Assembly: GCF_051903065.1 (NCBI RefSeq)
Contig: NZ_CP178440.1
Length of the DNA stretch: 64,000 nt
Strand: one strand, 5' to 3'
Source: Escherichia coli
Lineage (GTDB): Bacteria > Pseudomonadota > Gammaproteobacteria > Enterobacterales > Enterobacteriaceae
In this document: in pieces, positions 7,694 to 28,301 of the stretch
How positions within the stretch are numbered: position 1 is the stretch's first letter
Layout: each line of letters opens with the position of its first letter
Program-made: the position numbers and the translations under genes
Notes under the pieces: generated by a model
What the model saw: the letters and a program-made list of their open reading frames with translations, nothing else
What the model was told of the DNA's origin: nothing
Database searches by the model: none

Positions 7694-8464
7694 ATGAACG
7701 AAACGCTGAATGCACTGATTTGTCGCCACGCCCGTAACCTGCTGCTGGCGCAGGGCTGGCCGGAAGAGACGGATGTTGACCAGCGAAATCCGAACCATCC
7801 GGGCTGGATCAGCATTTACGTGCGGCTGGATGCGCCCCGGCTGGCGACATTACTCGTTAACCGCCACGATGGCGTGCTGCCGCCGCACCTGGCCTCCGCC
7901 ATTCAGAAACTGACCGGAACCGGGGCGGAGCTGGTACTGTCCGGCAGTCAGTGGCAGTCGCTGCCGGTACTTCCGGCAGACGGAACGCAGGTGTCTTTCC
8001 CGTATGCCGGTGAGTGGCTGGCAGAGGACGAAATCAGGGCAGTTCTTGATGCGGTACGCGATGCAGTACGCTGTGTCAGTTACCAGGTGGCAGAAGATAC
8101 GCGGCGTATCCGGGCGGCGCTGACCACAACCGGTCAGACGTTACTGACCCGCCAGACGCGCCGCTTTCGCCTGGTTGTGAAGGAAAGCGATCACCCCTGC
8201 TGGCTCGATGAGGACGACGAAAACCTGCCCGTGGTGCTCGATGCCATCCTGAACCGGGGCGCACGTTTTTCGTCGGTGGAAATGTATCTGGTCAGTGAGT
8301 GTATTGAGCATATCCTGTCCAGTGGGCTGGCCTGCGATGTGCTGCGTATACCGGATGAACCGCCCCGCCGCTGGTTTGACCGTGGTGTTCTGCGGGAGGT
8401 GGTCCGGGAAGCCCGGACCGAAATCCGCAGCATGGCGGATGCCCTGGCAAAAATCCGGAAATGA
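7694..8464 (+). CDS. Hypothetical leading-region protein (256 aa)
   Basis: ORF; no recognised motif. Confidence 0.5.
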
Positions 8465-8879
8465 TGACACTGGCGGGGTAAATCCCCGCCTTTTTCCTGC
8501 CGGTCCCCGGACAGAGCACAAAGGAAGTCGCCGCCGGCTCCGCTTTACCCGGCCATGCAGAGCATGGCCTTGTGGTTTTTCAGTTATGTGGCCTCAGCGT
8601 CGTGTGCGGGCTGTGCCGTGCCTCCATCTTAGCCGGGCTGGCGTTGATGCAAGGGTACGCTTCGCCGCTGCGGTCACCCGGTCCCTCCTTCCCGTCTGCC
8701 GTGATTTTCCGGTCGTTCGCCCGCTCAGGTTTCGCGGCCTCACCCTGCAACTCCCGCCAGCCGTGTGCGTCAGGCTGCGGCTTCCCTTGCGCCCCTGCAT
8801 CCCCGCCTTATCGCCCGGCTTTTATGGAGGCACGGCACCGCCCGGTGTCGCGGAATATGTGAACAACGGAGGAAATCCC

Positions 8880-9305
8880 ATGCAGTATGCGAAACCTGTC
8901 ACTCTGAACGTTGAAGAGTGCGACCGTCTCTCCTTTCTGCCTTACCTGTTTGGCAACGATTTTCTGTATGCCGAGGCGTATGTGTACGCGCTGGCGCAAA
9001 AAATGATGCCGGAATATCAGGGCGGCTTCTGGCACTTCATCCGCCTGCCGGACGGTGGCGGTTACATGATGCCGGATGGCGACCGTTTCCACATGGTGAA
9101 CGGTGCAAACTGGTTTGACCGTACCGTGAGTGCTGATGCCGCAGGCATCATCCTGACCTCCCTTGTGATTAACCGCCAGTTGTGGCTGTACCACGACAGC
9201 GGGGATGCAGGACTGACCCAGCTTTACCGGATGCGCGATGCGCAGTTGTGGCGTCACATCGAATTTCACCCCGAATGCAACGCGATTTACGCGGCTCTGG
9301 ACTGA
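8880..9305 (+). CDS. Antirestriction protein, KlcA/ArdB family
   Basis: 141-aa protein from ATG 8880 (RBS aacggagg); DRLSFLP and [15 protein letters not shown] segments resemble KlcA; the 336-aa ORF-track version is an N-terminal over-extension through GC-rich non-coding DNA. Confidence 0.7.
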
Positions 9306-9962: not shown

Positions 9963-10155
9963 TACAGGGGCAGGCGGTGGAGGCCGCCTGTCAGCCCGCG
10001 CGAAAACCCCTGGCAGGCTGACGCCTGCCGGAAGGGAAGCGGGCCACGCTGGCGCGTCGCCCGTTACCCTTCCCGTCTGTGATGTGTCTGACTCAGGAGT
10101 GTTTCTTTCTTATGTTGCGGAACTGTTCCTGATGTTGTTGTTGTTCCTTTATCTG

Positions 10156-10763
10156 CTGCTCTGATTCTGACTACTGCAGTGTTGTTCTGTCTGCCGGGCG
10201 CACCTTCGGCTCCCGGCTGCCTGGCGGCATCCGGTCGTCAGGCCCGACTCCGACAGGCAGCTGCTGGCGCACCTGCCAGTCTCCGCCGAACCCGCTGGCG
10301 CGGCTTCGGGCTGCCGCTACGGTCCGATGCGTGAAAACCCCGGGCTTGCAGCGACCGTTCCGGTCGCGCCGCCTCTGTCGCGCCGTGGCCTGCGCTCCTG
10401 GCATCCCGGCAAAAGGCCGCCGGGATGTAAGGGGCAACGCCGTTTCGCGCACGCGCTCTCCGTCGTTGCGGCGGGTCCCTGCTCATTGCCTGCCGGGTGC
10501 CACACACCCGTATGAGTCCCTGTCGCCGGGGGCTGATACAGCCACAACCTGCCGCACTGACTGTCCAGGGTAAATGAACAGCCCACAAAATTTTTTACCC
10601 AAAACCCGGTAAAAAATTTTGCGTTCTGCCCAGGACAGGTGCGTCAGGCCGTGGCAGTGATGCCCCTTGCGGCGAAGGTTCTCAAACGGGTGAAGTTCAT
10701 ACCACAGGGAATACAGCAGCAGGTTCCCGCGAAACGTCAAAACCGCGGCTCCCGAAACTCAAC
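10156..10763 (+). promoter_or_regulatory. Frpo/ssi-like structured repeat, copy A (candidate single-strand promoter / priming element)
   Basis: About 608 bp sharing long identical blocks with copies B and C; contains a 14-bp perfect inverted repeat at 10585-10598 / 10608-10621; ORFs called inside on both strands are artefacts. Confidence 0.65.
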
Positions 10764-11003
10764 GGGTGATGTTCTTTAAAAATCAGGATTTATTTCAGGC
10801 TCCGGCAATACGCATTTATTTGTTCTGTCAGTCATCCGGCTGGCAGGTAATGAGAACGCAGGAACAGAAGGAGGAAAACACCGTAGAACGTCAGACGCAG
10901 ATATGAAAAAAGCAGGTCAGGGACCTGCTTAATCCACGCCGTAAGAATTGCGCAACCAATTTTGACGGCATTGTTAACCAATTTGTCATAAGGAGTTTCA
11001 TTT

Positions 11004-11234
11004 ATGACAGTAAGTATTGTTTCACCTTCCGCAGCGGCTGTAAAGCCCCGCCGTCATCCCCGTTTCAGACGCGAAGACATCCCCGCGCCGGAAATTGACC
11101 CCGTGCTGAAAGCCTTCGGGCGACACATTGCCCGGAGTTTTCACCGGGGGCGTGGTGTACACATCCCCGCCATGAAAAACACGGCCTTCGGGCAGGTGCT
11201 CCGCACACTCGAACTGAAACGCGCTTTTAACTGA
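11004..11234 (+). CDS. Hypothetical small basic protein (76 aa) first gene after repeat copy A
   Basis: ORF with RBS aaggag 9 nt upstream of ATG. Confidence 0.4.
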   Translation: MTVSIVSPSAAAVKPRRHPRFRREDIPAPEIDPVLKAFGRHIARSFHRGRGVHIPAMKNTAFGQVLRTLELKRAFN

Positions 11235-11285
11235 TGAGGTGAGCCGCCCCGCGAGGGGCGGCAACAGACGGAAGGAGAACATTTT

Positions 11286-12647
11286 ATGACATTAGCAGCC
11301 ATCACCATGACCGCCCCGGAAGCCGCCAGCCCTGTGCAGATGTACCGCGCGACCTACTCACCGGATGACAACAAACTGCGCCTGTATGCCGCGTCACGCC
11401 TCGACCCGGAGACGTATAAAAAAGTGCATGATGCTGGTTTTCGCTGGGCACCCAAACAGGCGCTGTTTGTCGCGCCGGCCTGGACACCGGGCCGGGAAGA
11501 CGTGCTCCTCTCACTTGCCGGAGAGATTGAGGATGAAGACAGCACGCTCGCTGAACGTCAGGAAGCACGGGCGGAGCGGTTTACCGGATACAGCGGAAAG
11601 CGGGCCAGTGAATCCGCACAGGCACTTGATGAAGTGGAAAGACTGGCCGCGATGATCCCGCCCGGTCAGCCCATTCTTGTGGGGCATCACAGCGAACGCC
11701 GCGCCCGTCGTGATGCGCAGCGTATTGAAAACGGCATGAAACGTGCCGTGATGCTCTTTGAACGTGCGGAATACTGGGAAGAACGCGCGCGGTCGGCACT
11801 GCTTCACGCGAAGTATAAAGAACGTCCGGACGTTCGCTGGCGTCGTATCAAAAAAATCGAAGCTGATTTGCGCAAGGCTGAAAAGACCATTGCACAGTCG
11901 CAGAAATATCTGACGATGTGGCGGGCTGAATCGCTGGATCTGAATATGGCAAAACTCATCAGCAGTCATGACCATATCAGCGCCTGTTTCCCGCTGGATA
12001 CGTATCCGCGCCCGGCAGAAAAAAGCCAGTATGAAGGAAGTCGATCGTTATGGTCGGCCCTGGATGATGACATCATCACCACGGAGCAGGCCCGCGAAAT
12101 TGCGATCCGCTGTCATGAACGGCAGATCCAGCGTCAGCAACGCTGGGTTAACCACTATCAGAACCGCCTGATCTATGAGCGTGCCATGCTGGACGAAAGC
12201 GGCGGCGTGGTTACCCGGACACAGGATTTTGAGCCGGGCGGACAGGTTTTCAGCCGGGGCGAGTGGCTGACCATCATCCGTGTGAACAAAAGCAACGGGG
12301 CGGTGAGTTCAGTCACAACGCCAAATTACAGTTTTCTCGGGTACAGCGGCACGATGAAAGTGACGCCCGATCGCATCACGGACTACAAAGCACCATCGGC
12401 AGAAGAGGCTGCCGTCGCCAGTCAGGCCGCGAAGCGTCCGCCGGTAGTCAACTATCCGGGGGAAGGTTTCCGGGAAATGACAAAGGCACAGTGGGCCGCC
12501 CTGCCCCGGGACTGTAAGGCCGTGCGCAGTGTGGCAGAAGCAGAAGACCACGGGGCATACCGCTACCGCCGCACAATGGACAATAATTTCCGCCTGGTGA
12601 ATGTGTATATCACCGACATGAAAATCACGGAAATTCCACAGAAATAA
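11286..12647 (+). CDS. Hypothetical large leading-region protein (453 aa)
   Basis: ORF with RBS ggaaggagaacattttATG; conserved in IncF leading regions as far as I recall; function unknown. Confidence 0.6.
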   Translation: MTLAAITMTAPEAASPVQMYRATYSPDDNKLRLYAASRLDPETYKKVHDAGFRWAPKQALFVAPAWTPGREDVLLSLAGEIEDEDSTLAERQEARAERFTGYSGKRASESAQALDEVERLAAMIPPGQPILVGHHSERRARRDAQRIENGMKRAVMLFERAEYWEERARSALLHAKYKERPDVRWRRIKKIEADLRKAEKTIAQSQKYLTMWRAESLDLNMAKLISSHDHISACFPLDTYPRPAEKSQYEGSRSLWSALDDDIITTEQAREIAIRCHERQIQRQQRWVNHYQNRLIYERAMLDESGGVVTRTQDFEPGGQVFSRGEWLTIIRVNKSNGAVSSVTTPNYSFLGYSGTMKVTPDRITDYKAPSAEEAAVASQAAKRPPVVNYPGEGFREMTKAQWAALPRDCKAVRSVAEAEDHGAYRYRRTMDNNFRLVNVYITDMKITEIPQK

Positions 12648-12694
12648 GGTATATCCCCCCGGGAAAATCCCCGGGGGATGACGGAGATAATGAC

Positions 12695-13258
12695 ATGCAC
12701 AGTCAGTTAAGAGAACGTATCCGGCTGATGCGCGCAAGGCTGGATAACGCCGCGCCGGTTGCTGAAATCCGGGCTGAATCTCAGCTTTTTGTGACTCCTG
12801 CCCCGGTCTGTGATCGCCTGGTGATGCTGGCGGAGATCAGCAACCGTGATCACATTCTGGAACCCTCTGCCGGCACCGGGGCCATACTGCGGGCGATTCG
12901 GGATACCGCGCCGGGGGCCATGTGTGATGCGGTGGAAATCAACAGCGGGCTGGTCCGGTATCTGCGGGAAAATTTTAACGGTGTCAGGGTTCAGTGTGGC
13001 GACTTCATGGAATGGCAGCCGGCGCAGTATTACAGCCGGGTTATCATGAATCCGCCGTTCAGCCACGGGCAGGATATCCGGCATATCCTGCGGGCCTTTT
13101 CCCTGTTGCGTCCGGGTGGCGTGCTGGTCGCCGTCTGTCTCAACGGACCACGCCAGCAGGAGAAGCTGTTACCGTTTTCTGACGTCCGCGAGGAGCTGCC
13201 GCGCGGCACGTTTGCTTATACCGATGTCCCGACGATGATTATTCGTCTGCGTGCCTGA
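12695..13258 (+). CDS. Small putative AdoMet-dependent methyltransferase (187 aa), gamma-like motif order (EPSAGTG then NPPF)
   Basis: Motifs read in translation; too short to include an obvious target-recognition domain. Confidence 0.6.
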   Translation: MHSQLRERIRLMRARLDNAAPVAEIRAESQLFVTPAPVCDRLVMLAEISNRDHILEPSAGTGAILRAIRDTAPGAMCDAVEINSGLVRYLRENFNGVRVQCGDFMEWQPAQYYSRVIMNPPFSHGQDIRHILRAFSLLRPGGVLVAVCLNGPRQQEKLLPFSDVREELPRGTFAYTDVPTMIIRLRA

Positions 13259-13464
13259 AGACGCCGGGCAGGCGGGAGGATAAATGCCCGTCTGCCCGCG
13301 CCGGGAAAAGACCGCGCGCCGGTGGCGCTGAAAGGGGCCGCGCTCACGCGCCGCCCCTTTCATTACGCGGACGTTCTGATGGGGGCTTCTGTTTCTTCAT
13401 GCCTGTCATTTGTCTGTTACTGATGTTGTTGTTCCTGCTACTGCTACTGTTCTTCTTTTTCCTG

Positions 13465-14074
13465 CTGCTCTGATTCTGACTACTGCAGTGTTGTCCCGTC
13501 TGCCGGGCGCACCTTCGGCTCCCGGCTGCCTGGCGGCATCCGGTCGTCAGGCCCGACTCCGACAGGCAGCTGCTGGCGCACCTGCCAGTCTCCGCCGAAC
13601 CCGCTGGCGCGGTTTCGGGCTGTCGCTACGGTCCGATGCGTGAAAACCCCGGGCTTGCAGCGACCGTTCCGGTCGCGCCGCCTCTGTCGCGCCGTGGCCT
13701 GCGCTCCTGGCATCCCGGCAAAAGGCCGCCGGGATGTAAGGCGCAACGCCGTTTCGCAAACCGCGCTTCACGTCGTTGCGGCGGGTCCCTGCCCGTTGTT
13801 GTGTCCGGTGCCATTCACCTGTTTAAGCCCCTGTCGCCGGGGGCATAGACAGCCACAACCGTCTCCGCCAGTCCAGGGGTGAAATGCACATCCCGCAAAA
13901 CTTTTTGCCCGGAAGCAGGCAAAAACTTTTGCGGTCTGCCCCCGGACAGTCGTTTCCGGCCGTGGCAGTGATGCCCCTTGCGGCGAAGGTTCTCAAACAG
14001 GTGATGGTGAATACCGGAGGGAACAAAGAGCAGGTCCCCGCAAAACGTCAAAACCGCGGCTCCCGAAACTCAAC
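13465..14074 (+). promoter_or_regulatory. Frpo/ssi-like structured repeat, copy B, immediately upstream of ssb
   Basis: 610 bp, nearly identical to copy C (a few mismatches), more diverged from copy A; inverted repeat cgcaaaactttttgcc / ggcaaaaacttttgcg. Confidence 0.65.
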
Positions 14075-14115
14075 AGATGATGGGGGCTGAAAACATCAAC
14101 AGAAGGAGACACATC

Positions 14116-14951
<836 letters not shown>

Positions 14952-15016
14952 GAGAGGTGCCGGACGGGGACACGTCCGGCAGACAATCATTATTACCGTT
15001 TTGGGAGGTACTAACT

Positions 15017-15591
15017 ATGTCAGTTACAGAGTCTAAGGCAAAAACGGAGCGTAAATCCAGCCGTAAACCTGCAAAAACGCAGGAAACAGTCCTGTCTGCC
15101 CTGCTGGCGGAGACGGCTGAAGTGAGCGTGCCGCTGGCCTCGCTGATTAAGTCACCGCTGAATGTGCGCACGGTGCCGTATTCTGCGGAGTCCGTCAGCG
15201 AACTGGCAGAGTCCATTAAAGGTGTCGGCCTGCTGCAGAATCTGGTTGTCCATGCCCTGCCTGGTGACCGTTACGGTGTCGCCGCAGGTGGTCGCAGGCT
15301 GGCGGCACTCAATATGCTGGCAGAGCGTGGCATCCTTCCGGCTGACTGGCCTGTCCGCGTGAAGGTCATCCCGCAGGAACTGGCGACGGCGGCATCGATG
15401 ACCGAGAACGGTCATCGTCGGGATATGCACCCTGCCGAACAGATTTCCGGATTCCGTGCAATGGCGCAGGAAGGCAAAACACCTGCACAAATCGGTGATT
15501 TGCTGGGCTATTCACCCCGCCATGTCCAGCGAATGCTGAAACTGGCAGACCTTGCGCCTGTCATCCTCGATGCGCTGGCAGAAGACCGCAT
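15017..15591 (+). pseudogene. ParB-like leading-region gene, N-terminal fragment interrupted by IS26 copy 2
   Basis: ORF runs without a stop into the IS26 left inverted repeat at 15592; remainder resumes in frame at 20742. Confidence 0.6.
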
Positions 15592-16411
15592 GGCACTGTT
15601 GCAAATAGTCGGTGGTGATAAACTTATCATCCCCTTTTGCTGATGGAGCTGCACATGAACCCATTCAAAGGCCGGCATTTTCAGCGTGACATCATTCTGT
15701 GGGCCGTACGCTGGTACTGCAAATACGGCATCAGTTACCGTGAGCTGCAGGAGATGCTGGCTGAACGCGGAGTGAATGTCGATCACTCCACGATTTACCG
15801 CTGGGTTCAGCGTTATGCGCCTGAAATGGAAAAACGGCTGCGCTGGTACTGGCGTAACCCTTCCGATCTTTGCCCGTGGCACATGGATGAAACCTACGTG
15901 AAGGTCAATGGCCGCTGGGCGTATCTGTACCGGGCCGTCGACAGCCGGGGCCGCACTGTCGATTTTTATCTCTCCTCCCGTCGTAACAGCAAAGCTGCAT
16001 ACCGGTTTCTGGGTAAAATCCTCAACAACGTGAAGAAGTGGCAGATCCCGCGATTCATCAACACGGATAAAGCGCCCGCCTATGGTCGCGCGCTTGCTCT
16101 GCTCAAACGCGAAGGCCGGTGCCCGTCTGACGTTGAACACCGACAGATTAAGTACCGGAACAACGTGATTGAATGCGATCATGGCAAACTGAAACGGATA
16201 ATCAACGCCACGCTGGGATTTAAATCCATGAAGACGGCTTACGCCACCATCAAAGGTATTGAGGTGATGCGTGCACTACGCAAAGGCCAGGCCTCAGCAT
16301 TTTATTATGGTGATCCCCTGGGCGAAATGCGCCTGGTAAGCAGAGTTTTTGAAATGTAAGGCCTTTGAATAAGACAAAAGGCTGCCTCATCGCTAACTTT
16401 GCAACAGTGCC
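15592..16411 (+). mobile_element. IS26 copy 2 (820 bp)
   Basis: Exact 14-bp terminal inverted repeats; flanking 8-mers gaccgcat and ttgtgaac. Confidence 0.95.
15655..16359 (+). CDS. tnpA: IS26 transposase
   Basis: Identical translation to the other copies. Confidence 0.95.
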   Translation: MNPFKGRHFQRDIILWAVRWYCKYGISYRELQEMLAERGVNVDHSTIYRWVQRYAPEMEKRLRWYWRNPSDLCPWHMDETYVKVNGRWAYLYRAVDSRGRTVDFYLSSRRNSKAAYRFLGKILNNVKKWQIPRFINTDKAPAYGRALALLKREGRCPSDVEHRQIKYRNNVIECDHGKLKRIINATLGFKSMKTAYATIKGIEVMRALRKGQASAFYYGDPLGEMRLVSRVFEM

Positions 16412-16907
16412 TTGTGAACCTTATTGATGATCGTACCGATGATATTTTGTATGGAAGGCCATGGTACAAAAAATGGACGATGGGGAGAATGATCTCATTT
16501 AACACATCTTCGCCTTACGCCAATGCTAATGGAAGATTAAGAAAGTGGGCAAAAAATAATAATATCAGTTTAAAGTAAGCATCAGAATGAAATTATATGG
16601 ACGAAAAATTTCTCTATTAACTGCACCATGGCTGGTAAAATCTCTTACCCTTGATGAAAATACAGGTTCCGTTACTGTTACGGTCGGAATCGCTGAAAAT
16701 ACCTATAACCATCGTAAATGGTTCCACTTTGATACCTGCCTGTTCATTACCCAGTGCGCCGTAAAGCCCCGTCCTTCAGGGCGTGGAGGATGTCAAATTA
16801 GTAGAAGCCGATGCTGGGAGCAATGTTCCACTACGGGAAGCTGAATATGGCGTTCTGAGCCTTCCTACAATTATCGGGGAAGCCCCATCTGCGTACTCCG
16901 GATTTTT

Positions 16908-17035
16908 GTTTATATGATCATGGGATTATATGATTATATCATTTTGTAACTATTTGATTATGTAATTTTATGATTGCATAATTTTATGAATATGAGATTA
17001 TTTGAATACTTGGCAGAGGTACTATTTGAACAAAG
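16908..17035. promoter_or_regulatory. Array of about 7 degenerate AT-rich direct repeats (TT(A/T)TGA(T/A)T) upstream of parA; candidate centromere/operator
   Basis: ttatatgatca, ttatatgattat, tttgattatgt, ttttatgattg, ttttatgaata, ttatttgaata, tatttgaaca read at roughly 11-12 bp spacing. Confidence 0.5.
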
Positions 17036-17046
17036 GGGAGAGGTGA

Positions 17047-17670
17047 ATGCCTAACGTGATAGCATTTTTAAATGGTAAGGGGGGGGTGTCTAAGACAACC
17101 TCGGCAGTTAATATTGCTACTGCTCTTGCTCGTAAGGGTTACAAAGTTGTTGTTGTGGATACCGATCCCCAGGGAAGTGTTAGTAACTGGTATGATGACA
17201 GTAAGTGTGTTTTTGATGTAGCGGAAGCTACGGCAGAAAAAGAAATTTACCGTTTGCGGAAGGCGCTTCCTTTGCACGATTTTATCATTATTGATGGTGC
17301 TGCTGCGATTTCGGCGATATCGGCGGCTGCTGTTATGGTTTCTGATCTTGTTATTATTCCAGTTACTCCTTCGCCGCTTGATTTTGCTGCGTGTGGCGCG
17401 ATATTGGCAGTGATAGAAGCTCGTCAGGATTTACGCCCGGTGATTGCTCGCTTTTTGATTACTAAAAAAGTACAGCAAACGCATATGTTATCTTTGCTGA
17501 AAGAATCTATTGCAGAAACAAGCATACCAGCATTAAAAACAGGAACGTCGTACAGGCAGTCATATATAAGATCTATGCTGGATGGTGGTACTATATTTGA
17601 TACAAAAGATAGTGCTGCTAAAGGTGAAATATCAGTTATTACAGAAGAAATACTTGGACTATTAAAATGA
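17047..17670 (+). CDS. ParA-family partition ATPase (small, type Ib-like)
   Basis: Deviant Walker [11 protein letters not shown] at N-terminus, 207 aa. Confidence 0.85.
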
Positions 17671-17873
17671 GTAAAATGAAACTTGGGAATCATAAGGCAA
17701 CAAACACTGCTCTGGATGCACTGAAGAAACCTGCGGGAGCAACCAGAAAGTTACAAATGAATATTCCAGAAGAGTTACATCTTGCATTTAAATTAGCTTG
17801 TGTGGAAGATGGCATTGATATGACACAGGTAAATATAGAACTCATTCAAAACTGGTTAAAGAGTCGTAACTGA
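17667..17873 (+). CDS. Small partition partner protein (ParG-like, probable ribbon-helix-helix centromere binder)
   Basis: 68-aa ORF overlapping parA stop; basic N-terminal tail then short structured domain. Confidence 0.5.
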
Positions 17874-18182
17874 TAGTGTTTCAGCCAGTCGTAATCTGCG
17901 ACGCAAACAAAAAGCGCTGTCCCGCAAGCTCAATGCGGCACTCAACATCCGGCAAAAAGGAATACAGGAACTACAGGCGACGGGACTCGTCGTCACTGCC
18001 CATGGAGACCAGCGTAAATCCGTCGTACAGAAGAGGATAAAATGGGAGAGCAGTTATCGATTCCCTATCCGGGCAGCCCGTTTACGGGCCGTAAGTAACG
18101 AAGTTGGATGCAAATGTCAGATCGTGTGCGCCTGTTAGGGCGCGGCTGGTAAGAGAGCCTTATAGGCGCATTTGAAAAACCT

Positions 18183-18206
18183 CCGGCTATGCCGGAGGAT
18201 ATTTAT
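18183..18206. terminator. Bidirectional rho-independent terminator hairpin (cctccggc ... gccggagg) flanked by A/T runs
   Basis: Perfect stem with T-run on the minus strand about 80 nt downstream of the adhesin stop. Confidence 0.5.
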
Positions 18207-18284
18207 TTATCGAGTTCGGTGACCGCCTGGACGGTCACTTCTGAGACAAGGCATTTACACAGAATCTTAAACAGGCTCGCTAAT

Positions 18285-19775
18285 TTACCACCCAATGGCA
18301 AAACCAGCTCCTAAGTTTGTATCACCACCATTGTTCCATGATGTGTTGACTCGTATGTTAGCATTCTGGCTCACTTTATATTGAACTCCGGCTGCGATTG
18401 CTTGAGCATCACGATAATGCCCCACGCCCATACCAAATGAAAAGCGCTCATTATTAACATAAGGAATTGATGAAATAGCGGTAACTCCGGCAATACCCGC
18501 ATTAGCACGCTTTTCGACTCTATCTATTTTTTTATTCATTTGTGAGAATCTTTGCTCATTTTTCTGCTGTAAATCATTTAATGTTTTATTGAAGTTTTTA
18601 CCTAATGTATCAACGCTAGATGCAGTATATTTGTTTGCCATTTCTAGAGTGTTTAAATCACCTTGTTCACGGAGTCTTTTCTCTTCATTGATTGCACTTG
18701 TTCTGGCTTTTTTTTCTTCATTTATTCTTGCAACTACTGATTTGCTGGGGTCTTTTTCTATATTTTTAATTTCATCTTCACTCATGCCTATAGCTTTAGT
18801 GACAACATCTAATTGGGACATATTCACAGCATCTGTAGGATTTACGCCCCCGGCAAGATTCGTGATTCTTCTGTTTATCATGGGCTCTGTCGTTGTTGCT
18901 TCCCTTCCTAAAGATACAACACCATTCTTACTATCTGTGTTCTCTACAGCGGTATATTTAGATACAGTATCATCATATTGATTATGCGTTTTCGATCTTG
19001 CCCCAAGAGCAATACTGCCTTTTGAATTAGACTCAGATAAATATCCAATGGAAACAGAATCAGTTTCCTGAGAGGCTGAATATGATCCTAATGCAATACT
19101 ATTTTTACCAATGGAATGAGACTCTAATCCTATGGCAGAACTGCCAGAGCCAATTGATAATGATTGACTACCCAATGCTGTACCAAATTCACCAACCACC
19201 GTCGAAAAGGAACCTACTGCCGTTCCTTCAATATTGTGGGAACTTGATTTATATCCCATTACAGATGACGCATATTGATTCCCATATTTCTCCTTAGCAT
19301 GAGGATCAACAGATGAGTCAACAGAAATATGTCCATCAGCGGATACTGTTATTTTTTTACCACTCACATCTAAGGATGAATTATTTTCAGGCAATTTAGT
19401 TACTGAAGCTTTGTTACCGATTAAAGTTGAATAGTTTCCTTCTGAATCAATTTTCGATCTGGATCCAACTATAGTCGAAAAAGTCCCTGCTTCTGTTGCA
19501 GAATCGTATCCTATTACTACTGATGCTCCTGCTCCTCCTTTTTCTGGTATATTCAAAGACTTAGAATTTGGACCTATTACTACTGAGAAATTTTGTTCTG
19601 ATCTTGTAGCATCACCAATTCCCTTACCAATAGCGATACTGCCAATACCTGAAGATTCTGTATTATCCGCACCAATAGCTATAGATGAGTAGCCTTTAGG
19701 ATTAGCAGCAAAAGAACAAAGGCTAACACCAGATAATGTTAATAGTATAGATGATAAAATTAATTTATTATTCAT
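18285..19775 (-). CDS. Trimeric autotransporter adhesin (YadA-like head repeats, coiled-coil stalk, C-terminal beta-barrel anchor)
   Basis: Signal peptide MNNKLILSSILLTLSGVSLCSFA, repetitive SIAIG/SxGxxS head motifs, heptad-rich stalk, C-terminal anchor ending GAGFAIGW. Confidence 0.8.
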   Translation of the reverse strand: MNNKLILSSILLTLSGVSLCSFAANPKGYSSIAIGADNTESSGIGSIAIGKGIGDATRSEQNFSVVIGPNSKSLNIPEKGGAGASVVIGYDSATEAGTFSTIVGSRSKIDSEGNYSTLIGNKASVTKLPENNSSLDVSGKKITVSADGHISVDSSVDPHAKEKYGNQYASSVMGYKSSSHNIEGTAVGSFSTVVGEFGTALGSQSLSIGSGSSAIGLESHSIGKNSIALGSYSASQETDSVSIGYLSESNSKGSIALGARSKTHNQYDDTVSKYTAVENTDSKNGVVSLGREATTTEPMINRRITNLAGGVNPTDAVNMSQLDVVTKAIGMSEDEIKNIEKDPSKSVVARINEEKKARTSAINEEKRLREQGDLNTLEMANKYTASSVDTLGKNFNKTLNDLQQKNEQRFSQMNKKIDRVEKRANAGIAGVTAISSIPYVNNERFSFGMGVGHYRDAQAIAAGVQYKVSQNANIRVNTSWNNGGDTNLGAGFAIGW

Positions 19776-19921
19776 AGCAACATATCCCACCAAAGTAGAT
19801 AGATTATCGTTATTCCTCGATAAATAAATTGCAATGTAAGATACATTAATCTTAACAATGTGTTAACATAAGAGGCTGTTAACACATTTAGTTTATAACA
19901 TAAAACATCATAAATATTAAG

Positions 19922-20741
19922 GGCACTGTTGCAAATAGTCGGTGGTGATAAACTTATCATCCCCTTTTGCTGATGGAGCTGCACATGAACCCATTCAAAG
20001 GCCGGCATTTTCAGCGTGACATCATTCTGTGGGCCGTACGCTGGTACTGCAAATACGGCATCAGTTACCGTGAGCTGCAGGAGATGCTGGCTGAACGCGG
20101 AGTGAATGTCGATCACTCCACGATTTACCGCTGGGTTCAGCGTTATGCGCCTGAAATGGAAAAACGGCTGCGCTGGTACTGGCGTAACCCTTCCGATCTT
20201 TGCCCGTGGCACATGGATGAAACCTACGTGAAGGTCAATGGCCGCTGGGCGTATCTGTACCGGGCCGTCGACAGCCGGGGCCGCACTGTCGATTTTTATC
20301 TCTCCTCCCGTCGTAACAGCAAAGCTGCATACCGGTTTCTGGGTAAAATCCTCAACAACGTGAAGAAGTGGCAGATCCCGCGATTCATCAACACGGATAA
20401 AGCGCCCGCCTATGGTCGCGCGCTTGCTCTGCTCAAACGCGAAGGCCGGTGCCCGTCTGACGTTGAACACCGACAGATTAAGTACCGGAACAACGTGATT
20501 GAATGCGATCATGGCAAACTGAAACGGATAATCAACGCCACGCTGGGATTTAAATCCATGAAGACGGCTTACGCCACCATCAAAGGTATTGAGGTGATGC
20601 GTGCACTACGCAAAGGCCAGGCCTCAGCATTTTATTATGGTGATCCCCTGGGCGAAATGCGCCTGGTAAGCAGAGTTTTTGAAATGTAAGGCCTTTGAAT
20701 AAGACAAAAGGCTGCCTCATCGCTAACTTTGCAACAGTGCC
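19922..20741 (+). mobile_element. IS26 copy 3 (820 bp), same orientation as copy 2
   Basis: Exact terminal inverted repeats; flanking 8-mers atattaag and accggaag. Confidence 0.95.
19985..20689 (+). CDS. tnpA: IS26 transposase
   Basis: Identical translation to the other copies. Confidence 0.95.
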   Translation: MNPFKGRHFQRDIILWAVRWYCKYGISYRELQEMLAERGVNVDHSTIYRWVQRYAPEMEKRLRWYWRNPSDLCPWHMDETYVKVNGRWAYLYRAVDSRGRTVDFYLSSRRNSKAAYRFLGKILNNVKKWQIPRFINTDKAPAYGRALALLKREGRCPSDVEHRQIKYRNNVIECDHGKLKRIINATLGFKSMKTAYATIKGIEVMRALRKGQASAFYYGDPLGEMRLVSRVFEM

Positions 20742-22029
20742 ACCGGAAGTACAGACCATTCGTCGTCTGGTGACCGAAAGTGAAGTGGCGGTGGCGGGGA
20801 ACAGTAAATTCCGCTTCGTGGGGGCTGATGCCTTCTCGCCAGACGAACTGCGCACCGATTTGTTCAGCGATGACGGGGACGGTTATGTCGACCGCGTGGC
20901 GCTCGATGCTGCCCTGCTGGAAAAACTCCAGGCTGTCGCAGAGTTCCTTCGGGAAGCCGAGGGCTGGGGATGGTGCGCCGGACGCATGGAGCCTGTCGGT
21001 GAATGCCGTGAAGATGCCCGGGCATACCGCAACCTGCCGGAGCCGGAAGCGGTGCTGACGGAGGCGGAAGAAGAACACCTGAACGAACTGATGGCACGTT
21101 ACGACGCGCTGGAAAACCAGTGTGAGGAATCTGACCTGCTGGCAGCAGAAATGAAGCTGATTGACTGCATGGCGAAGGTCAGGGCGTGGACGCCGGAGAT
21201 GCGTGCCGGAAGTGGCGTGGTGGTGTCCTGGCGTTACGGTAATGTGTGTATCCAGCGTGGTGTGCAGTTGCGCAGTGAGGATGATGTGGCTGACGACGCT
21301 GACCGCACGGAACAGGGGCTGGAGAGCGCGTCAGTGGAGGAAATCAGTCTGCCGTTGCTGACTAAACTGACCTCAGAGCGCACGCTGGCAGTCCAGGCAG
21401 CACTGATGCAGCAACCGGACAAATCCCTGGCACTGCTGGCATGGACGCTCTGCCTGAATGTGTTTGACAGCAAAGCGCACTGTAGTCCCGCCAGAATTCG
21501 CCTGGCATGTGAGCATTATGCGCTGACCAGCGATGCACCGTCGGGGAAGGAAGGTGCCGCATTCATGGCGCTGATGGCAGAACACTCTCGTTTTGCTGCC
21601 CTGCTGCCGGAAGGATGGGAACGGGATATGACGACGTTCCTGTCACTCAGCCAGGAGGTGCTGTTATCCCTGCTCAGCTTCTGTACCGCGTGCAGTCTTA
21701 ACGGTGTCCAGACCCGAGAGTGTGGTCACACGTCACGCAGTCCGCTTGACTCGCTGGAAACCGCCATCGGCTTTCACATGCGCGACTGGTGGCAGCCGAC
21801 AAAAGCAAACTTCTTCGGACACCTGAAAAAGCCGCAGATTATCGCAGCTCTGAATGAGGCAGGACTGTCCGGTGCCGCACGGGACGCGGAGAAGATGAAG
21901 AAAGGCGATGCGGCTGAACATGCAGAGTTCCATATGAAAGACAACCGCTGGGTGCCTGGCTGGATGTGTGCACCACGTCCACAGACGGATACCACTGAAC
22001 GCACCGATAACCTGGCTGATGCCGCCTGA
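20742..22029 (+). pseudogene. ParB-like leading-region gene, C-terminal fragment (continues the frame interrupted at 15591)
   Basis: Open frame begins exactly at the IS26 boundary; joining 15591 to 20742 gives codon ata and an uninterrupted frame. Confidence 0.6.
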
Positions 22030-22083
22030 TGAACAACCACACCGCCCCGCCGGAGACGGGGCGGCAGCAAGGGAGATACCGTG

Positions 22084-22518
22084 ATGAAAACTGAACTGAC
22101 CCTGAATGTATTACAGACCATGAGTGCACAGGAATATGAAGATATCCGGGCTGCCGGAAGTGATGAACGCCGTGAGCTGACACACGCCGTGATGCGGGAA
22201 CTGGATGCGCCGGACAACTGGACGATGAATGGCGAGTACGGCAGCGAGTTCGGCGGCTTTTTCCCCGTCCAGGTCCGTTTCACGCCTGCCCACGAACGTT
22301 TTCACCTGGCGTTATGTTCACCGGGCGATGTCTCTCAGGTCTGGGTGCTGGTTCTGGTGAATGCCGGTGGTGAGCCGTTTGCGGTGGTTCAGGTGCAGCG
22401 GCGGTTTGCACCGGAAGCTGTCAGCCATTCACTGGCACTGGCGGCGTCACTGGATGCGCAGGGGTACAGCGTTAACGACATCATTCATATCCTGATGGCG
22501 GAAGGAGGTCAGGCATGA
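22084..22518 (+). CDS. psiB: Plasmid SOS inhibition protein PsiB
   Basis: [32 protein letters not shown]... matches PsiB as recalled. Confidence 0.9.
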
Positions 22519-23234
22519 GCGCACGTTCACAGGCACTGGTTCCTCTCAGCACAGAGCAACAGGCCGCATGGCGGGCGGTGGCGGAGACCGAAAAACGCCG
22601 CCATCAGGGTAACACGCTGGCTGAATATCCGTATGCGGGTGCGTTTTTCCGCTGTCTGAACGGAAGCCGCAGGATATCGCTGTCTGACCTGCGATTTTTC
22701 ATGCCGTCCCTGACCGCAGAAGAACTGCACGGCAACCGTCTTCAGTGGCTGTATGCCATCGATGTGCTGATTGAAACACAGGGCGAGGTCTGCCTCCTTC
22801 CCCTTCCCGGCGATGCAGCAGAGCGCTTGTTCCCGTCGGTGCGGTTTCGTGTCAGGGAACGCAGTCGCCATAAATCCGCGCTGGTCATGCAGAAGTACAG
22901 CCGCCAGCAAGCGAGGGAGGCAGAGCAGAAAGCCCGTGCGTACCAGGTGCTGGTTGCTCAGGCTGAAATCGAACTGGCATTTCATTCACCGGAAACAGTC
23001 GGAAGCTGGCATGCACGCTGGAGTGACCGGGTGGCAGAGCATGACCTGGAACCCCTGTTCTGGCAGTGGGGCGAGCGTTTTCCGTCACTGGCCGGAATGG
23101 AACGCTGGCAGTGGCAGGATATGCCATTCTGGCAGGTTATCGCGGAAGCCAGTCTGGCAGCCAGAGAGGCCGGTCATGCTGTCCGTGAGATGGAGCGGTG
23201 GATGGTGCCGAACAAACTCCGGGAGGCAGCGTGA
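22515..23234 (+). CDS. psiA: PsiA
   Basis: 239-aa ORF overlapping psiB stop, conserved psiB-psiA arrangement. Confidence 0.85.
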
Positions 23235-23455
23235 TGCGGCAATAATCACACGGATTACCCGTGAACTGGTTGAACGACCAGATTATTTTCAGGGAAAGTG
23301 AGTGTGGTCAGCGTGCAGGGATATGAGCTATGATGTGCCCGGCGCTTGAGGCTTTCTGCCTCATGACGTGAAGGTGGTTTGTTGCCGTGTTGTGTGGCAG
23401 AAAGAAGATAGCCCCGTAGTAAGTTAATTTTCATTAACCACCACGAGGCATCCCT

Positions 23456-23668
23456 ATGTCTAGTCCACATCAGGATAGCCTCTTACCGCGCTTTGCGCAA
23501 GGAGAAGAAGGCCATGAAACTACCACGAAGTTCCCTTGTCTGGTGTGTGTTGATCGTGTGTCTCACACTGTTGATATTCACTTATCTGACACGAAAATCG
23601 CTGTGCGAGATTCGTTACAGAGACGGACACAGGGAGGTGGCGGCTTTCATGGCTTACGAATCCGGTAA
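23456..23668 (+). CDS. mok: Mok (modulation of killing) reading frame overlapping hok
   Basis: 70-aa ORF in alternate frame spanning hok. Confidence 0.55.
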
Positions 23669-23672
23669 GTAG
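23514..23672 (+). CDS. hok: Hok toxin (52 aa), host-killing membrane peptide of the hok/sok post-segregational killing locus
   Basis: Hand translation [52 protein letters not shown]; absent from ORF track because under 60 aa; the antisense Sok RNA should lie on the minus strand just upstream but was not mapped. Confidence 0.85.
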
Positions 23673-23943
23673 CAACCTGGAGGCGGGCGCAGGCCCGCCT
23701 TTTCAGGACTGATGCTGGTCTGACTACTGAAGCGCCTTTATAAAGGGGCTGCTGGTTCGCCGGTAGCCCCTTTCTCCTTGCTGATGTTGTACGGGCATGA
23801 ACAACCTGACTTCAGGAAGGTCGTTTCCCTTCAGGAACGGGGATGAACGCGCGCCTGCGGCGCCCGTTCTTTTCCCCCGCCTTCTCTGGTTATGGCCTGT
23901 CAAAAATCACATCACCTTCCCTGTGATTATTCTCTTTTTCTTC

Positions 23944-24553
23944 CTGCTCTGATTCTGACTACTGCAGTGTTGTCCTGTCTGCCGGGCGCACCTTCGGCTC
24001 CCGGCTGCCTGGCGGCATCCGGTCGTCAGGCCCGACTCCGACTGGCAGCTGCTGGCGCACCTGCCAGTCTCCGCCGAACCCGCTGGCGCGGTTTCGGGCT
24101 GTCGCTACGGTCCGATGCGTGAAAACCCCGGGCTTGCAGCGACCGTTCCGGTCGCGCCGCCTCTGTCGCGCCGTGGCCTGCGCTCCTGGCATCCCGGCAA
24201 AAGGCCGCCGGGATGTAAGGCGCAACGCCGTTTCGCAAACCGCGCTTCACGTCGTTGCGGCGGGTCCCTGCCCGTTGTTGTGTCCGGTGCCATTCACCTG
24301 TTTAAGCCCCTGTCGCCGGGGGCATAGACAGCCACAACCGTCTCCGCCAGTCCAGGGGTGAAATGCACATCCCGCAAAACTTTTTGCCCGGAAGCAGGCA
24401 AAAACTTTTGCGGTCTGCCCCCGGACAGTCGTTTCCGGCCGTGGCAGTGATGCCCCTTGCGGCGAAGGTTCTCAAACAGGTGATGGTGAATACCGGAGGG
24501 AACAAAGAGCAGGTCCCCGCAAAACGTCAAAACCGCGGCTCCCGAAACTCAAC
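23944..24553 (+). promoter_or_regulatory. Frpo/ssi-like structured repeat, copy C
   Basis: 610 bp nearly identical to copy B (offset 10479 bp); followed by an RBS and an ORF. Confidence 0.65.
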
Positions 24554-24593
24554 AGATGATGGGGGCTGAAAACCAGAGAGAGGAGAAAGCAGG

Positions 24594-24881
24594 ATGAGTA
24601 CCCGAAATATCCACGTTAACACCGCGTCGTACACGCTTCTTGTTGCCGGGAAGAAAAAAAACACCGGGGAAGAGTGGGACGTCCTGGAATTCAGCAGCCT
24701 GACTGAGCTGAAAAAATATCGCAAAAGCCACCCGGAAAAGATGGCCTTCAGTTATAGCTACGCGCTCAGTCAGGGTGTGGATAAGCAGTTCCGCCATATC
24801 AACATTGCGGAAGCCGATCACTTCAAACAGTTCCTGCGTCAGATTAAGCGTGCCGGCCTCGATATCCGGGCGATCTGCTGA
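24594..24881 (+). CDS. Hypothetical protein (95 aa), first gene after repeat copy C
   Basis: ORF with RBS gagaggagaaagcaggATG. Confidence 0.45.
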   Translation: MSTRNIHVNTASYTLLVAGKKKNTGEEWDVLEFSSLTELKKYRKSHPEKMAFSYSYALSQGVDKQFRHINIAEADHFKQFLRQIKRAGLDIRAIC

Positions 24882-24998
24882 CCGGATGTGATGAATATCC
24901 CTCCTGATTGTTGCAATCTTGTTAATGGTGGCCGGGAGGGATGATATTAAGCGGAAAATTTTTTATTAAATTTATTCTTTCATAAAGGAGTAGCTGTT

Positions 24999-25820
24999 AT
25001 GCGATTAGCTTCCCGTTTTGGTCGGTATAATTCCATCCGCCGTGAACGTCCTTTAACGGATGATGAATTAATGCAGTTCGTGCCTTCGGTATTTTCCGGT
25101 GATAAACATGAGTCCCGGAGTGAACGTTATACGTATATTCCAACAATCAATATCATCAATAAGTTACGTGATGAAGGTTTCCAGCCATTCTTTGCCTGTC
25201 AGAGTCGGGTTCGTGATTTGGGACGTCGCGAATACAGTAAACATATGTTACGTCTTCGCAGGGAAGGGCATATTAACGGGCAGGAAGTTCCTGAAATTAT
25301 CCTGCTTAATTCACATGATGGTTCATCCAGTTATCAGATGATCCCCGGAATTTTTCGTTTTGTCTGCACAAATGGCCTGGTGTGCGGAAATAATTTTGGC
25401 GAAATCCGCGTTCCACATAAAGGTGATATTGTCGGGCAGGTTATCGAGGGAGCGTATGAAGTGCTCGGTGTCTTTGATAAGGTCACTGATAATATGGAGG
25501 CGATGAAAGAAATTCATCTTAACAGTGACGAGCAACATTTATTTGGCAGAGCTGCACTGATGGTCAGGTATGAAGATGAAAATAAAACGCCAGTGACACC
25601 TGAACAGATAATTACTCCCCGTCGTCGGGAAGACAAACAGAACGATCTCTGGACAACCTGGCAGCGGGTTCAGGAGAATATGATAAAAGGTGGATTATCG
25701 GGGCGAAGTGCCTCCGGGAAAAATACCAGGACAAGAGCCATTACAGGTATTGATGGTGATATAAGAATCAACAAGGCGTTATGGGTGATTGCCGAACAGT
25801 TCAGAAAGTGGAAGTCATGA
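24999..25820 (+). CDS. Hypothetical leading-region protein (273 aa)
   Basis: ORF with RBS aaaggag; conserved near oriT in F-like plasmids as far as I recall. Confidence 0.55.
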   Translation: MRLASRFGRYNSIRRERPLTDDELMQFVPSVFSGDKHESRSERYTYIPTINIINKLRDEGFQPFFACQSRVRDLGRREYSKHMLRLRREGHINGQEVPEIILLNSHDGSSSYQMIPGIFRFVCTNGLVCGNNFGEIRVPHKGDIVGQVIEGAYEVLGVFDKVTDNMEAMKEIHLNSDEQHLFGRAALMVRYEDENKTPVTPEQIITPRRREDKQNDLWTTWQRVQENMIKGGLSGRSASGKNTRTRAITGIDGDIRINKALWVIAEQFRKWKS

Positions 25821-26626: not shown

Positions 26627-27040
26627 TTTTCCACCTCTGGTGACTTTATCCGTAAATAATTTAACCCACTCCACAAAAAGGCTCAACAGGTTGGTGGTTC
26701 TCACCACCAAAAGCACCACACCCCACGCAAAAACAAGTTTTTGCTGATTTGCTTTTTGAATCATTAGCTTATGTTTTAAATAATGTATTTTAATTTATTT
26801 TACATTATTAAATAGGGGCGTTGACGACCCTATGGCGACCCTATGGCGACCCTTGTTAGGGTCAGTACTGACAAATTTTATGAAAAACATTTGGATATAT
26901 TAGGGCCGCCCCTAGCAGCGCCGTGCGTTTTTTTATAGTATGCCCCTAGGGGCGCTGCTAGGGGTGCTCTTCTTTTTTCAGACCAAACTATGAGTAAATG
27001 AAATAAAACACTTGTTTCAGAATATAAAAGGTACTGTCTT
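26627..27040. other. Origin of transfer (oriT) region between gene X and traM, with direct repeats cgaccctatgg x2 and inverted repeats (ctagcagcgcc / ggcgctgctag)
   Basis: Position, nic 22-mer, repeat architecture typical of relaxosome accessory-protein binding sites. Confidence 0.8.
26710..26731 (-). other. oriT nic region, minus-strand 5'-tttgcgtggggtgt/ggtgcttt-3'; predicted nick between 26718 and 26717
   Basis: Exact match to the F TraI ssDNA recognition 22-mer as I recall it; the 5' end at the nick leads into the leading region. Confidence 0.7.
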
Positions 27041-27424: not shown

Positions 27425-27539
27425 ATGAAAATGAAGTTTGAGTTGGTTCAAATATAAGAATTTTTATGATTCAAAAAGATGACAATACGTCAGATAATTA
27501 GTATATTAATTACGTGGTTAATGCCACGTTAAAAATTGA

Positions 27540-27615
27540 AACTGAAAATCGCCGATGCAGGGAGGTCTGAACTCCCTGCATCGACTGTCCATAGAATCCT
27601 TAACGGAGGTTCCTA
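27540..27615 (-). ncRNA. finP: FinP antisense RNA (approximate), complementary to the traJ leader and RBS
   Basis: Stem-loop gatgcagggag-gtctgaact-ccctgcatc at about 27555-27583 in the traJ 5' leader; ends not determined. Confidence 0.4.
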
Positions 27616-28301
27616 TGTGTGCGCTGGATCGTAGAGAAAGGCCACTTAACAGTCAATCTGTAAATAAGTACATCCTTAACGTTCAGAATATCTACAGAAA
27701 TTCTCCCGTTCCGGTTTGTGTCCGTAACAAAAACCGGAAAATCCTTTATGCCAATGGGGCTTTTATTGAACTCTTTTCCAGAGAAGATAAACCCTTATCC
27801 GGAGAGAGTTATATACGTCTGCAGGTTGAAATTTTTCTTTCATCACTTGAATTGGAATGCCAGGCTCTTGGACATGGCTCTGCATTTTGTCGTCGTTTTA
27901 ATTTTCATGGCGAAATCTATCAGATAAGGATGGAGAATGTTTCTTTTTATAATGACGAATCTGTTGTTTTATGGCAAATTAATCCGTTTCCTGATTATCC
28001 ATTTTTTGCGTTAAGTCAGAGTGGAAGTAATACAAATACTTCTGATAAATTAACGATATGGAATGATCTTTCCCCCGGGACATTGCTTGTTTTCTCTTTT
28101 TATATGCTGGGTGTTGGTCATGCAACAATTGCCAGAGAATTGGGTATTACAGACAGAGCATCTGAGGATCGAATTAAACCAGTTAAACGGAAAATAAAAG
28201 AATTTTTTGAACACTTTGATTTATTCAGAGTGTCATGTATCTATAAAGGGAAAATAGATTTGCTATTAAATATAATTCGTGAATTTTATAGCGTTAAGTA
28301 A
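27615..28301 (+). CDS. traJ: Transfer operon activator TraJ
   Basis: ORF from ATG after RBS ggagg; position between traM and traY; ORF-track start is 20 codons upstream. Confidence 0.8.

Follow-up and report, generated by a model that had tools for sequence, protein, structure and literature searches.

Class 1 single-strand DNA promoters have been demonstrated experimentally in F and IncI1 plasmids (PMC9849209, PMC12672017). In F, deletions of Frpo1 and Frpo2 abolish early expression in transconjugants (PMC9849209); the transcription starts of ssi1-3, mapped by 5' RACE, agree with predictions, and promoters of the class 1 type are reported to be inactive as duplex DNA (PMC12672017). An anti-CRISPR driven by Frpo is effective only if it is placed in the leading region and on the transferred strand, and Samuel et al. 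counted 13,089 homologues across 6,006 elements (PMC11541004). A burst of expression of anti-defence, SOS-inhibition and ssDNA-binding genes, under the control of Frpo/ssi promoters, determines whether a resistance plasmid becomes established in a new host.

Here, we describe three repeats in direct orientation (A, B and C), each about 640 nt long, from the leading region of an F-type conjugative plasmid; they are contained in a 64,000-nt stretch of Escherichia coli contig NZ_CP178440.1 that is referred to below as the window. A preliminary description of this DNA had reported three copies of ~610 bp. The three copies are confirmed, although the units prove slightly longer (~640 nt), and the 40-mer quoted from them occurs exactly three times in the window (starts at 10648, 13959 and 24438), against a chance expectation of none. 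The repeats, their left modules and right-hand hairpins, the gene blocks that follow them and the origin of transfer are located as follows, in window coordinates:

10145-10786, minus strand (the transferred and functional strand): repeat A, whole unit (repeat search and alignment)
10145-10427, minus strand: left module of A, outside the published Frpo
10428-10775, minus strand: hairpin of A, homologous to Frpo/ssiD, a very probable class 1 single-strand promoter with the apex type of F Frpo2
11004-13258, plus strand: gene block after A (open reading frames, RefSeq annotation of a 97% identical plasmid and NCBIfam methyltransferase-fold matches), comprising a 76-aa open reading frame (11004-11234), a DUF3560 protein (11286-12647) and a class I SAM-dependent methyltransferase (12695-13258)
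13454-14097, minus strand: repeat B, whole unit, directly upstream of ssb (repeat search and alignment)
13454-13736, minus strand: left module of B, outside the published Frpo
13737-14086, minus strand: hairpin of B, homologous to Frpo/ssiD (identity and DNA fold)
14116-23234, plus strand: gene block after B, with ssb, DUF905, a ParB-like gene, psiB (22081-22518) and psiA (22515-23234)
23933-24576, minus strand: repeat C, whole unit, directly upstream of ygeA-like and ygeB-like (DUF932) genes (repeat search and alignment)
23933-24215, minus strand: left module of C, outside the published Frpo
24216-24565, minus strand: hairpin of C, homologous to Frpo/ssiD (identity and DNA fold)
24594-25820, plus strand: gene block after C, with a 95-aa ygeA-like gene (24594-24881) and a DUF932 ygeB-like gene (24999-25820)
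26710-26726, minus strand: F-type oriT nick sequence GTGGGGTGTGGTGCTTT, the single exact match in the window

The nick match owes its weight to its position just upstream of traM (27041), from which the tra genes run rightwards; the traJ 5' UTR and FinP are at 27512-27621. The minus strand, which bears the nick sequence, is therefore the transferred strand, and the order of entry is C, B and A, at distances from the nick of 2.1, 12.6 and 15.9 kb, respectively. All three copies lie in the leading region and are oriented such that transcription templated by the transferred strand reads the neighbouring genes, and every leading gene downstream of them is on the plus strand, as hairpin-started transcription would read it.

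When read on the minus strand, the right-hand ~350 nt matches F ssiD/Frpo with 95.5% identity over 351 nt in B and C and with 80% identity over 335 nt in A (10760..10428), the ssiD reference sequence being that of PMC11541004 Supplementary file 4. Another ssi of F given in the same file, ssiE, looks unrelated on reading, and Rfam holds no family covering repeats A, B or C. Among the copies themselves, B and C are 99.5% identical, with an identical stretch of 344 nt; in the alignment of A with B/C, identity is 98% in the left 286 nt and just 77.5% in the right 346 nt.

Copy C shares its position, downstream genes and long hairpin with F Frpo1 (ssiD, ssp1a; upstream of ygeA/ygeB), and the F Frpo1 region is 96.7% identical to it over 458 nt (95.5% for the deposited ssiD); the first ~190 nt of C (23933-24122) have no counterpart in F, which has a different sequence there. 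Copy B shares its position and the ssb-psiB operon with F Frpo2 (ssp1b, upstream of ssb), but, unlike F Frpo2, this ssb-proximal copy is of the Frpo1 sequence type, as is C. The F Frpo2 region is instead 94% identical to copy A, which has the same type of apical sequence. ColIb-P9/IncI1 plasmids likewise have three copies scattered over a single leading region (ssi1-3), each heading an operon, with the same hairpin architecture and many compensatory changes, although their hairpin sequence is just 49-64% identical to the present copies and some of the genes that follow are different (ardA and others).

As a single minus strand, each copy folds into an imperfect hairpin of ~310 nt; the conserved long stem-loop for which folding had been suggested as a check is found in A, B and C. 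Minus-strand DNA folds of the whole repeats give z = -9, -13 and -18.5, the last of these for copy C (23928-24590). The hairpins alone (z = -10 to -11) are 7-16 kcal/mol more stable on the minus strand than on the plus strand, because their G.T pairs form on the transferred strand alone: the transferred-strand fold reaches -94.6 kcal/mol (z = -10) in A and -105 kcal/mol (z = -11) in B, the latter being 15.6 kcal/mol better than the plus strand. The apical hairpin has its arms at 10586-10599/10608-10621 in A, 13894-13909/13918-13933 in B and 24373-24388/24397-24412 in C.

The covariation previously noted for this apical hairpin stands in part. The compensatory A:T to G:C change is genuine, but pairing is not fully preserved, since a second double change in the same hairpin leaves B/C with a C.C mismatch (G.G on the transferred strand) where A has a T:A pair. 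The suggested count of changes between A and B, made over the 74 pairs common to both folds, gives four two-sided compensatory changes and four one-sided changes to G.T. One compensatory pair between two sequence types is weak evidence by itself; across the family, covariation is strong. In a set of ten members (A, B, F Frpo1 and Frpo2, ColIb-P9 ssi1-3, a Serratia copy and two metagenomic copies), the 45 consensus stem pairs are 93.5% paired, compared with 41-48% when the partner is slid, and two-sided compensatory change is seen in 14 of the 45, compared with 1-7 when the partner is slid; these values were reached in none of 500 shuffles. Several conserved positions pair as G.T on the minus strand and would be C.A mismatches in the plus strand or its RNA.

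Each repeat thus very probably carries a class 1 single-strand DNA promoter of the Frpo/ssi family. The reading as Frpo/ssi-type single-strand promoters, offered in the preliminary description, is borne out by homology, location on the transferred strand, orientation, long hairpins and family covariation, all observed in the present analysis, as is the absence of a conventional promoter: a plus-strand candidate was rejected because no sigma-70 consensus occurs on that strand in A, B or C. A weight-matrix scan of both hairpin arms placed no canonical -35/-10 hexamers; its candidates are weak and not conserved across the family (TTGAGA-17-CATCAC in the 5' arm and TTGYGG-15/17-TGGACW in the 3' arm). 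A conserved unpaired CATYT bulge is a further weak candidate. Recognition by RNA polymerase, dependence on the single-stranded state and priming are expected here by analogy with the published near-identical copies. The earlier statement that the function of each copy is untested holds just for the present plasmid, the near-identical F copies having been deleted (PMC9849209) and the starts of ssi1-3 mapped (PMC12672017).

In the mechanism that we propose, the minus strand would be nicked at 26710-26726 and would enter the recipient 5' end first, C arriving before B and B before A. At the single-stranded stage, the right-hand ~350 nt of each repeat would fold upon itself, and host RNA polymerase would take the resulting ~310-nt imperfect hairpin as a promoter. 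With the incoming strand as template, transcription would proceed rightwards in window coordinates: C would drive ygeA/ygeB, B the genes from ssb to psiB/psiA, and A the DUF3560-methyltransferase block. These transcripts could also prime synthesis of the complementary strand. Expression is proposed to stop once the strand has been copied into duplex, since the hairpin would then be gone.

The claim that each copy lies directly upstream of a ribosome-binding site (RBS) and a gene is correct for B and C, the ends of which are 7-10 nt from the RBS (AGGAG at 14104 and the ssb ATG at 14116 for B; GGAG at 24582 and ATG at 24594 for C), but not for A, which ends 218 nt short of the next ATG (11004), with the antisense RNA gene AS-pc01 on the other strand within the gap. 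Given this gap and the 80% identity, the output of A may be differently regulated or weaker. In the block after B, the ParB-like gene is split by an IS26-bounded 5.15-kb insert (15592-20741) located between copy B and psiB/psiA, and B-driven transcription may or may not still reach these two genes past the insert.

We consider it improbable that the repeats serve priming alone, as primosome-assembly or primase sites for complementary-strand synthesis that contribute nothing to gene expression. It was as a single-strand initiation sequence (ssiD) that Frpo was originally isolated, and Frpo transcripts act as primers for DNA synthesis in vitro (PMC7690428), early rifampicin-sensitive conversion has been reported near ssp1 sites in vivo (bioRxiv 10.64898/2026.01.09.698686), and the structured GC-rich left module is a formal candidate for a PriA-type priming site. 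However, Frpo priming runs through transcription by RNA polymerase, so that the two functions are not alternatives, and both the closeness of the RBS to the ends of B and C and the placement of all leading genes on the strand so read argue for expression.

Less probable still are ordinary promoter or leader regions whose conserved structure acts in an mRNA 5' UTR and not in single-stranded DNA. A start within the hairpin would put part of the repeat, including the 40-nt invariant block, in a UTR, and the plus strand, too, forms strong structure (-84 to -90 kcal/mol); against this, that strand is the one without a sigma-70 consensus and the less stably folded of the two, the conserved G.T pairs would be C.A mismatches in RNA, and the reported inactivity of such promoters as duplex DNA (PMC12672017) points the same way.

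The best-conserved part of the repeats is not the promoter hairpin itself but the unstudied GC-rich segment of ~290 nt beside it. This left module is 98-99% identical among A, B and C, and its transferred strand is structured (z = -4 to -6), more so than its plus strand. The IncI1 plasmid pSH4469 is 94.7% identical to 13508-13694 of the left module of B, whereas its hairpin is 49-64% identical; the module has thus stayed ~95% identical to the present one while the promoter hairpin diverged. The left module is, to judge from the alignments, homogenised among the three copies. That it also has a separate function of its own on the transferred strand is conceivable but rather doubtful: a polymerase arriving from the upstream block would reach it immediately ahead of the hairpin, so it could be a barrier that prolongs the single-stranded, active state of the promoter, or, alternatively, it could be an insulator or a priming site.

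The copies also recombine with each other. F Frpo2 is A-type at 48 of 49 informative sites over A coordinates 10483-10687 and B-type at 39 of 39 from 10688 on, and F is without the 76-aa/DUF3560/methyltransferase block that parts A from B here; F Frpo2 looks like an A/B hybrid formed upon deletion of that gene block. We give very little credence to the view that the repeats are kept mainly as substrates for homologous recombination or gene conversion that shuffle cassettes, their structure being incidental. The 344-nt identity of B and C, the near-identical left modules, the clean F mosaic and the deletion between such repeats described in IncI plasmids (PMC3817090) are in keeping with it, but it explains the mosaicism and not the 14 compensatory pairs, the strand-specific G.T pairs or the published promoter function. 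Recombination is a real side effect of carrying the repeats rather than an alternative function.

That the repeats encode small proteins is almost certainly wrong: RefSeq has 68-aa ‘single-stranded DNA-binding protein’ open reading frames at 13884-14090 and 24363-24569 and several hypothetical proteins within the repeats, and several overlapping frames occur in the left module, but these coding candidates were rejected because the 68-aa frame is missing from A, where single-base indels break it, and because several frames are open at once on both strands, with the Arg/Pro/Ala/Gly-rich translations expected of ~70% GC DNA.

Three copies in one leading region, previously called unusual, turn out to be the commonest number. 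Three are present in ColIb-P9 and in further IncI1 plasmids (ssi1-3; PMC12672017, PMC3817090). In a BLAST search of a plasmid collection (at least ~80% identity), at least 5000 plasmid records matched, with a mean of ~3.0 places each, and in an even sample of 60 records, 31 had exactly three copies among the matches listed. A scan of genome contigs for distant family members, with the pattern GTCCNGGGN{45,75}CCCTGGAC, returned only chance matches in high-GC genomes; the family was instead drawn from published sequences and plasmid records. Because the promoter is well studied and three copies are the usual number, the finding is real but ordinary: the repeats are the already known Frpo/ssi hairpin promoter.

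The class 2 (ssp2, ‘Frpo3’) and class 3 promoters of F and pESBL share the working principle of class 1 but have no sequence similarity to A, B or C, and ssp2 is additionally a barrier to complementary-strand synthesis (bioRxiv 10.64898/2026.01.09.698686). The window adds no new principle and is a clean example with all three published promoter classes. Its class 2 and class 3 promoters are located upstream of an antirestriction gene and a DNA methylase gene.

Repeat finding and alignment place three direct repeats (copies A, B and C) in the plasmid leading region, as a preliminary description had claimed, and the 40-mer quoted there has exactly three exact occurrences. The repeats, and the terminator-like structures preceding them, are:

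10145-10786, direct repeat, copy A
13454-14097, direct repeat, copy B
23933-24576, direct repeat, copy C
9965-10145, 13258-13454 and 23790-23933, + strand, terminator-like hairpins and CT tract

Copies B and C are 99.5% identical overall, without a single difference in the right 344 nt, whereas copy A matches them at 98% in the left 286 nt and at 77.5% in the right 346 nt.

The traJ 5′ UTR and FinP (27512-27621), the antisense RNAs of traG and traI, two sok RNAs and CopA were detected with Rfam, and the region shares 93-97% identity with thousands of IncF plasmids of Escherichia, Klebsiella, Salmonella and Shigella; the window therefore belongs to an F-type conjugative plasmid. On the minus strand, at 26710-26726, lies the only exact match to the F-type nick sequence GTGGGGTGTGGTGCTTT. 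Judged by this match, the transferred strand is the minus strand, the leading region is all sequence left of ~26.7 kb, and the order of entry is C (2.1 kb from the nick), B (12.6 kb) and A (15.9 kb).

[quoted passage not shown] Using the deposited F plasmid sequence (Supplementary file 4 of PMC11541004) as reference, identity is 95.5% over 351 nt to the minus strand of B (14086..13737) and C (24565..24216), and 80% to that of A (10760..10428). F has two copies: Frpo1, which is ssiD, precedes ygeA/ygeB, and Frpo2 precedes ssb. The main feature of the minus-strand fold, a check put forward in the preliminary description, is an imperfect hairpin of ~310 nt, with the A/T-rich hairpin of that description at its apex. 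Single-stranded folds of the three repeats reach z = -9.0, -13.1 and -18.5 against shuffled controls, and the minus-strand hairpin exceeds its + strand counterpart in stability by 7-16 kcal/mol, because several conserved pairs are G.T.

The arms of the apical hairpin lie where they had been reported, and the compensatory change exists (A:T in A, G:C in B/C); pairing is nevertheless not fully kept, since at another position of this hairpin both bases differ as well, with T:A in A but mismatched C.C in B/C (G.G when read on the transferred strand). Separate minimum-energy folds of A and B have 74 pairs in common, four with two-sided compensatory changes and four with one-sided changes to G.T. 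Much stronger support for a selected structure than that single pair comes from covariation in a ten-member family alignment (A, B, F Frpo1 and Frpo2, ColIb-P9 ssi1-3, one Serratia and two metagenomic copies). Two-sided compensatory changes affect 14 of its 45 consensus pairs, against 1-7 in controls with the 3′ partner displaced by 1-3 columns; paired cells amount to 93.5%, against 41-48% in the same controls, and none of 500 column shuffles reached the observed values. The selected structure is thus borne out, and homology, transferred-strand fold and covariation show the Frpo/ssi-type identification to have been right. The observation is real, yet both the element and its occurrence in several copies are well known from earlier work.

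Three Frpo-like repeats per leading region were recorded for ColIb-P9 in 1999 and for pO26-CRL125 in 2013 (PMC3817090), and Samuel et al. list 13,089 homologues across 6,006 elements (PMC11541004). Our hairpin query matched 14,964 places in the best 5,000 records of a plasmid collection; among 60 records evenly spaced through these, 31 had three places, 16 two, four one and nine four or more. Three copies, thought unusual at first, are therefore the commonest state, and two-copy F is the exception. Compared with copies A and B, F Frpo2 (F 10175-10628) is a clean mosaic of A-type apex and B-type tail: 48 of the 49 informative sites in A coordinates 10483-10687 agree with A, all 39 from 10688 onward agree with B, and the switch coincides with the point where the invariant 40-mer ends on the right. 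F also lacks the 76-aa/DUF3560/methyltransferase block that the window plasmid has between A and B. Both features are consistent with deletion through A-type x B-type recombination, which suggests how the two-copy state of F arose. The risk of such repeat-repeat deletion was raised by Couturier et al. (PMC9849209), and deletion between such repeats has been observed in IncI plasmids (PMC3817090).

No sigma-70 consensus promoter was found on the + strand of copy A, B or C. As Masai and Arai (1997) are summarised in PMC7690428, RNA polymerase is offered -35/-10 boxes by the stem-loop of single-stranded Frpo, and the transcript can serve as a primer for DNA synthesis. Duplex conversion turns Frpo promoters off (PMC9849209); 5′ RACE starts for ssi1-3 of an IncI1 plasmid agreed with predictions, the family being named class 1 (PMC12672017); and a Frpo-controlled anti-CRISPR gene protected its plasmid only when placed on the leading-region transferred strand (PMC11541004). 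By geometry, polymerase templated by the minus strand runs rightward in the window, and all downstream genes point that way. By analogy with these near-identical copies, copy C would then serve the 95-aa ygeA-like gene and the DUF932 ygeB-like gene; copy B would serve ssb, DUF905, the ParB-like gene, psiB and psiA; and copy A would serve the 76-aa ORF, the DUF3560 protein and the SAM-dependent methyltransferase. We infer that the window hairpins present such boxes; candidates are TTGAGA-17-CATCAC in the 5′ arm (-10 inside an internal loop), TTGYGG-15/17-TGGACW in the 3′ arm (adjoining the A/T hairpin) and a nearly invariant unpaired CATYT bulge, all non-canonical and not conserved family-wide.

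The description of each copy as directly upstream of an RBS holds for B and C (7-10 nt before it; ATG 14116 of ssb and 24594 of the ygeA-like gene) and fails for A, which is separated from the next gene (ATG 11004) by 218 nt. Ahead of each repeat, the + strand carries terminator-like GC-rich hairpins and then a 50-80-nt pyrimidine-rich (CT) tract, an arrangement suggesting that gene blocks are insulated from the next promoter unit.

The GC-rich left module (~290 nt; 68-72% GC) falls outside ssiD in every repeat. Its 13508-13640 segment is 95.5% identical to IncI1 pSH4469, where it also lies just upstream of an ssi element, whereas the corresponding stretch of F is unrelated; 13641-13694 is 93-100% identical in all sequences compared. 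In the pSH4469 record, the counterpart of 13508-13694 is ~2501-2690 (~95% identity), although the hairpins of the IncI1 and window plasmids share only 49-64%. The module occurs at 95-100% identity in at least 5000 plasmid records, and its transferred strand folds at z = -4 to -6, 4.5-11 kcal/mol more stably than the + strand. By analogy with the ssp2 roadblock, the module might act as a barrier or insulator. Its overlapping ORFs were rejected as genes; they resemble the incidental reading frames that GC-rich DNA commonly yields.

Two further hairpins resemble other single-strand promoter classes:

8471-8884, minus strand, class 2 single-strand promoter (ssp2, ‘Frpo3’), from hairpin and identity to F and Samuel et al.
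5958-6299, minus strand, candidate class 3 single-strand promoter, from hairpin and F identity

The first folds strongly on the transferred strand (-91 kcal/mol, z = -4.5) and directly precedes an antirestriction (KlcA/ArdB-like) gene (ATG 8880). It shares 95% identity with the sequence ahead of the KlcA homologue in F and 83% with 'Frpo' 4' of Samuel et al., and a match to the published ssp2 primer lies at 8299-8319 (two mismatches); on this sequence evidence it is a class 2 promoter. The second is also a strong transferred-strand hairpin (-101 kcal/mol, z = -6.1); it directly precedes a 227-aa DNA methylase gene (6296-6979, MSRFILGDC...DPPY) and is 95% identical to the region upstream of the F methylase, so it is probably a class 3 promoter of Wen et al.

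The antisense RNA AS-pc01 (Rfam, 90 bits) lies on the minus strand at 10907-11009, with a sigma-70-like promoter of its own (11044..11016, TTTACA-17-AACAAT with TG); its intrinsic terminator is at 10930..10910. This RNA overlaps the start codon of the 76-aa ORF and its RBS, and since that ORF is the first gene after copy A, the block may be under antisense control.

Downstream of copy B, two IS26 elements in direct orientation (15592-16411 and 19922-20741) flank a 5.15-kb insert (15592-20741), which interrupts the ParB-like leading gene located between ssb and psiB and sets psiB/psiA apart from copy B. The genes of the insert, and a third IS26 elsewhere in the window, are:

17047-17670, ParA-family ATPase gene, within the insert
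18285-19793, YadA-like trimeric autotransporter adhesin gene, within the insert, on the strand opposite to the ParA-family gene
1365-2184, third IS26

Loss-of-function mutations in yfhA, a leading-region gene of the same operon that may or may not be the ParB-like gene, gave higher transfer rates in one host (PMC10104558).

A 68-aa ORF inside the hairpin (13884-14090, 24363-24569) is named ‘single-stranded DNA-binding protein’ (WP_073520019.1) in near-identical RefSeq plasmids; copy A lacks it, the real ssb begins at 14116, and the name is probably an annotation artefact. Rfam sok matches mark two hok/sok-type loci, at 23340-23516 and 62863-63020. One of them sits between psiA and copy C and hence separates copy B from copy C; for its equivalent in F, Couturier et al. 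suggested a protective role against deletion via repeat recombination.
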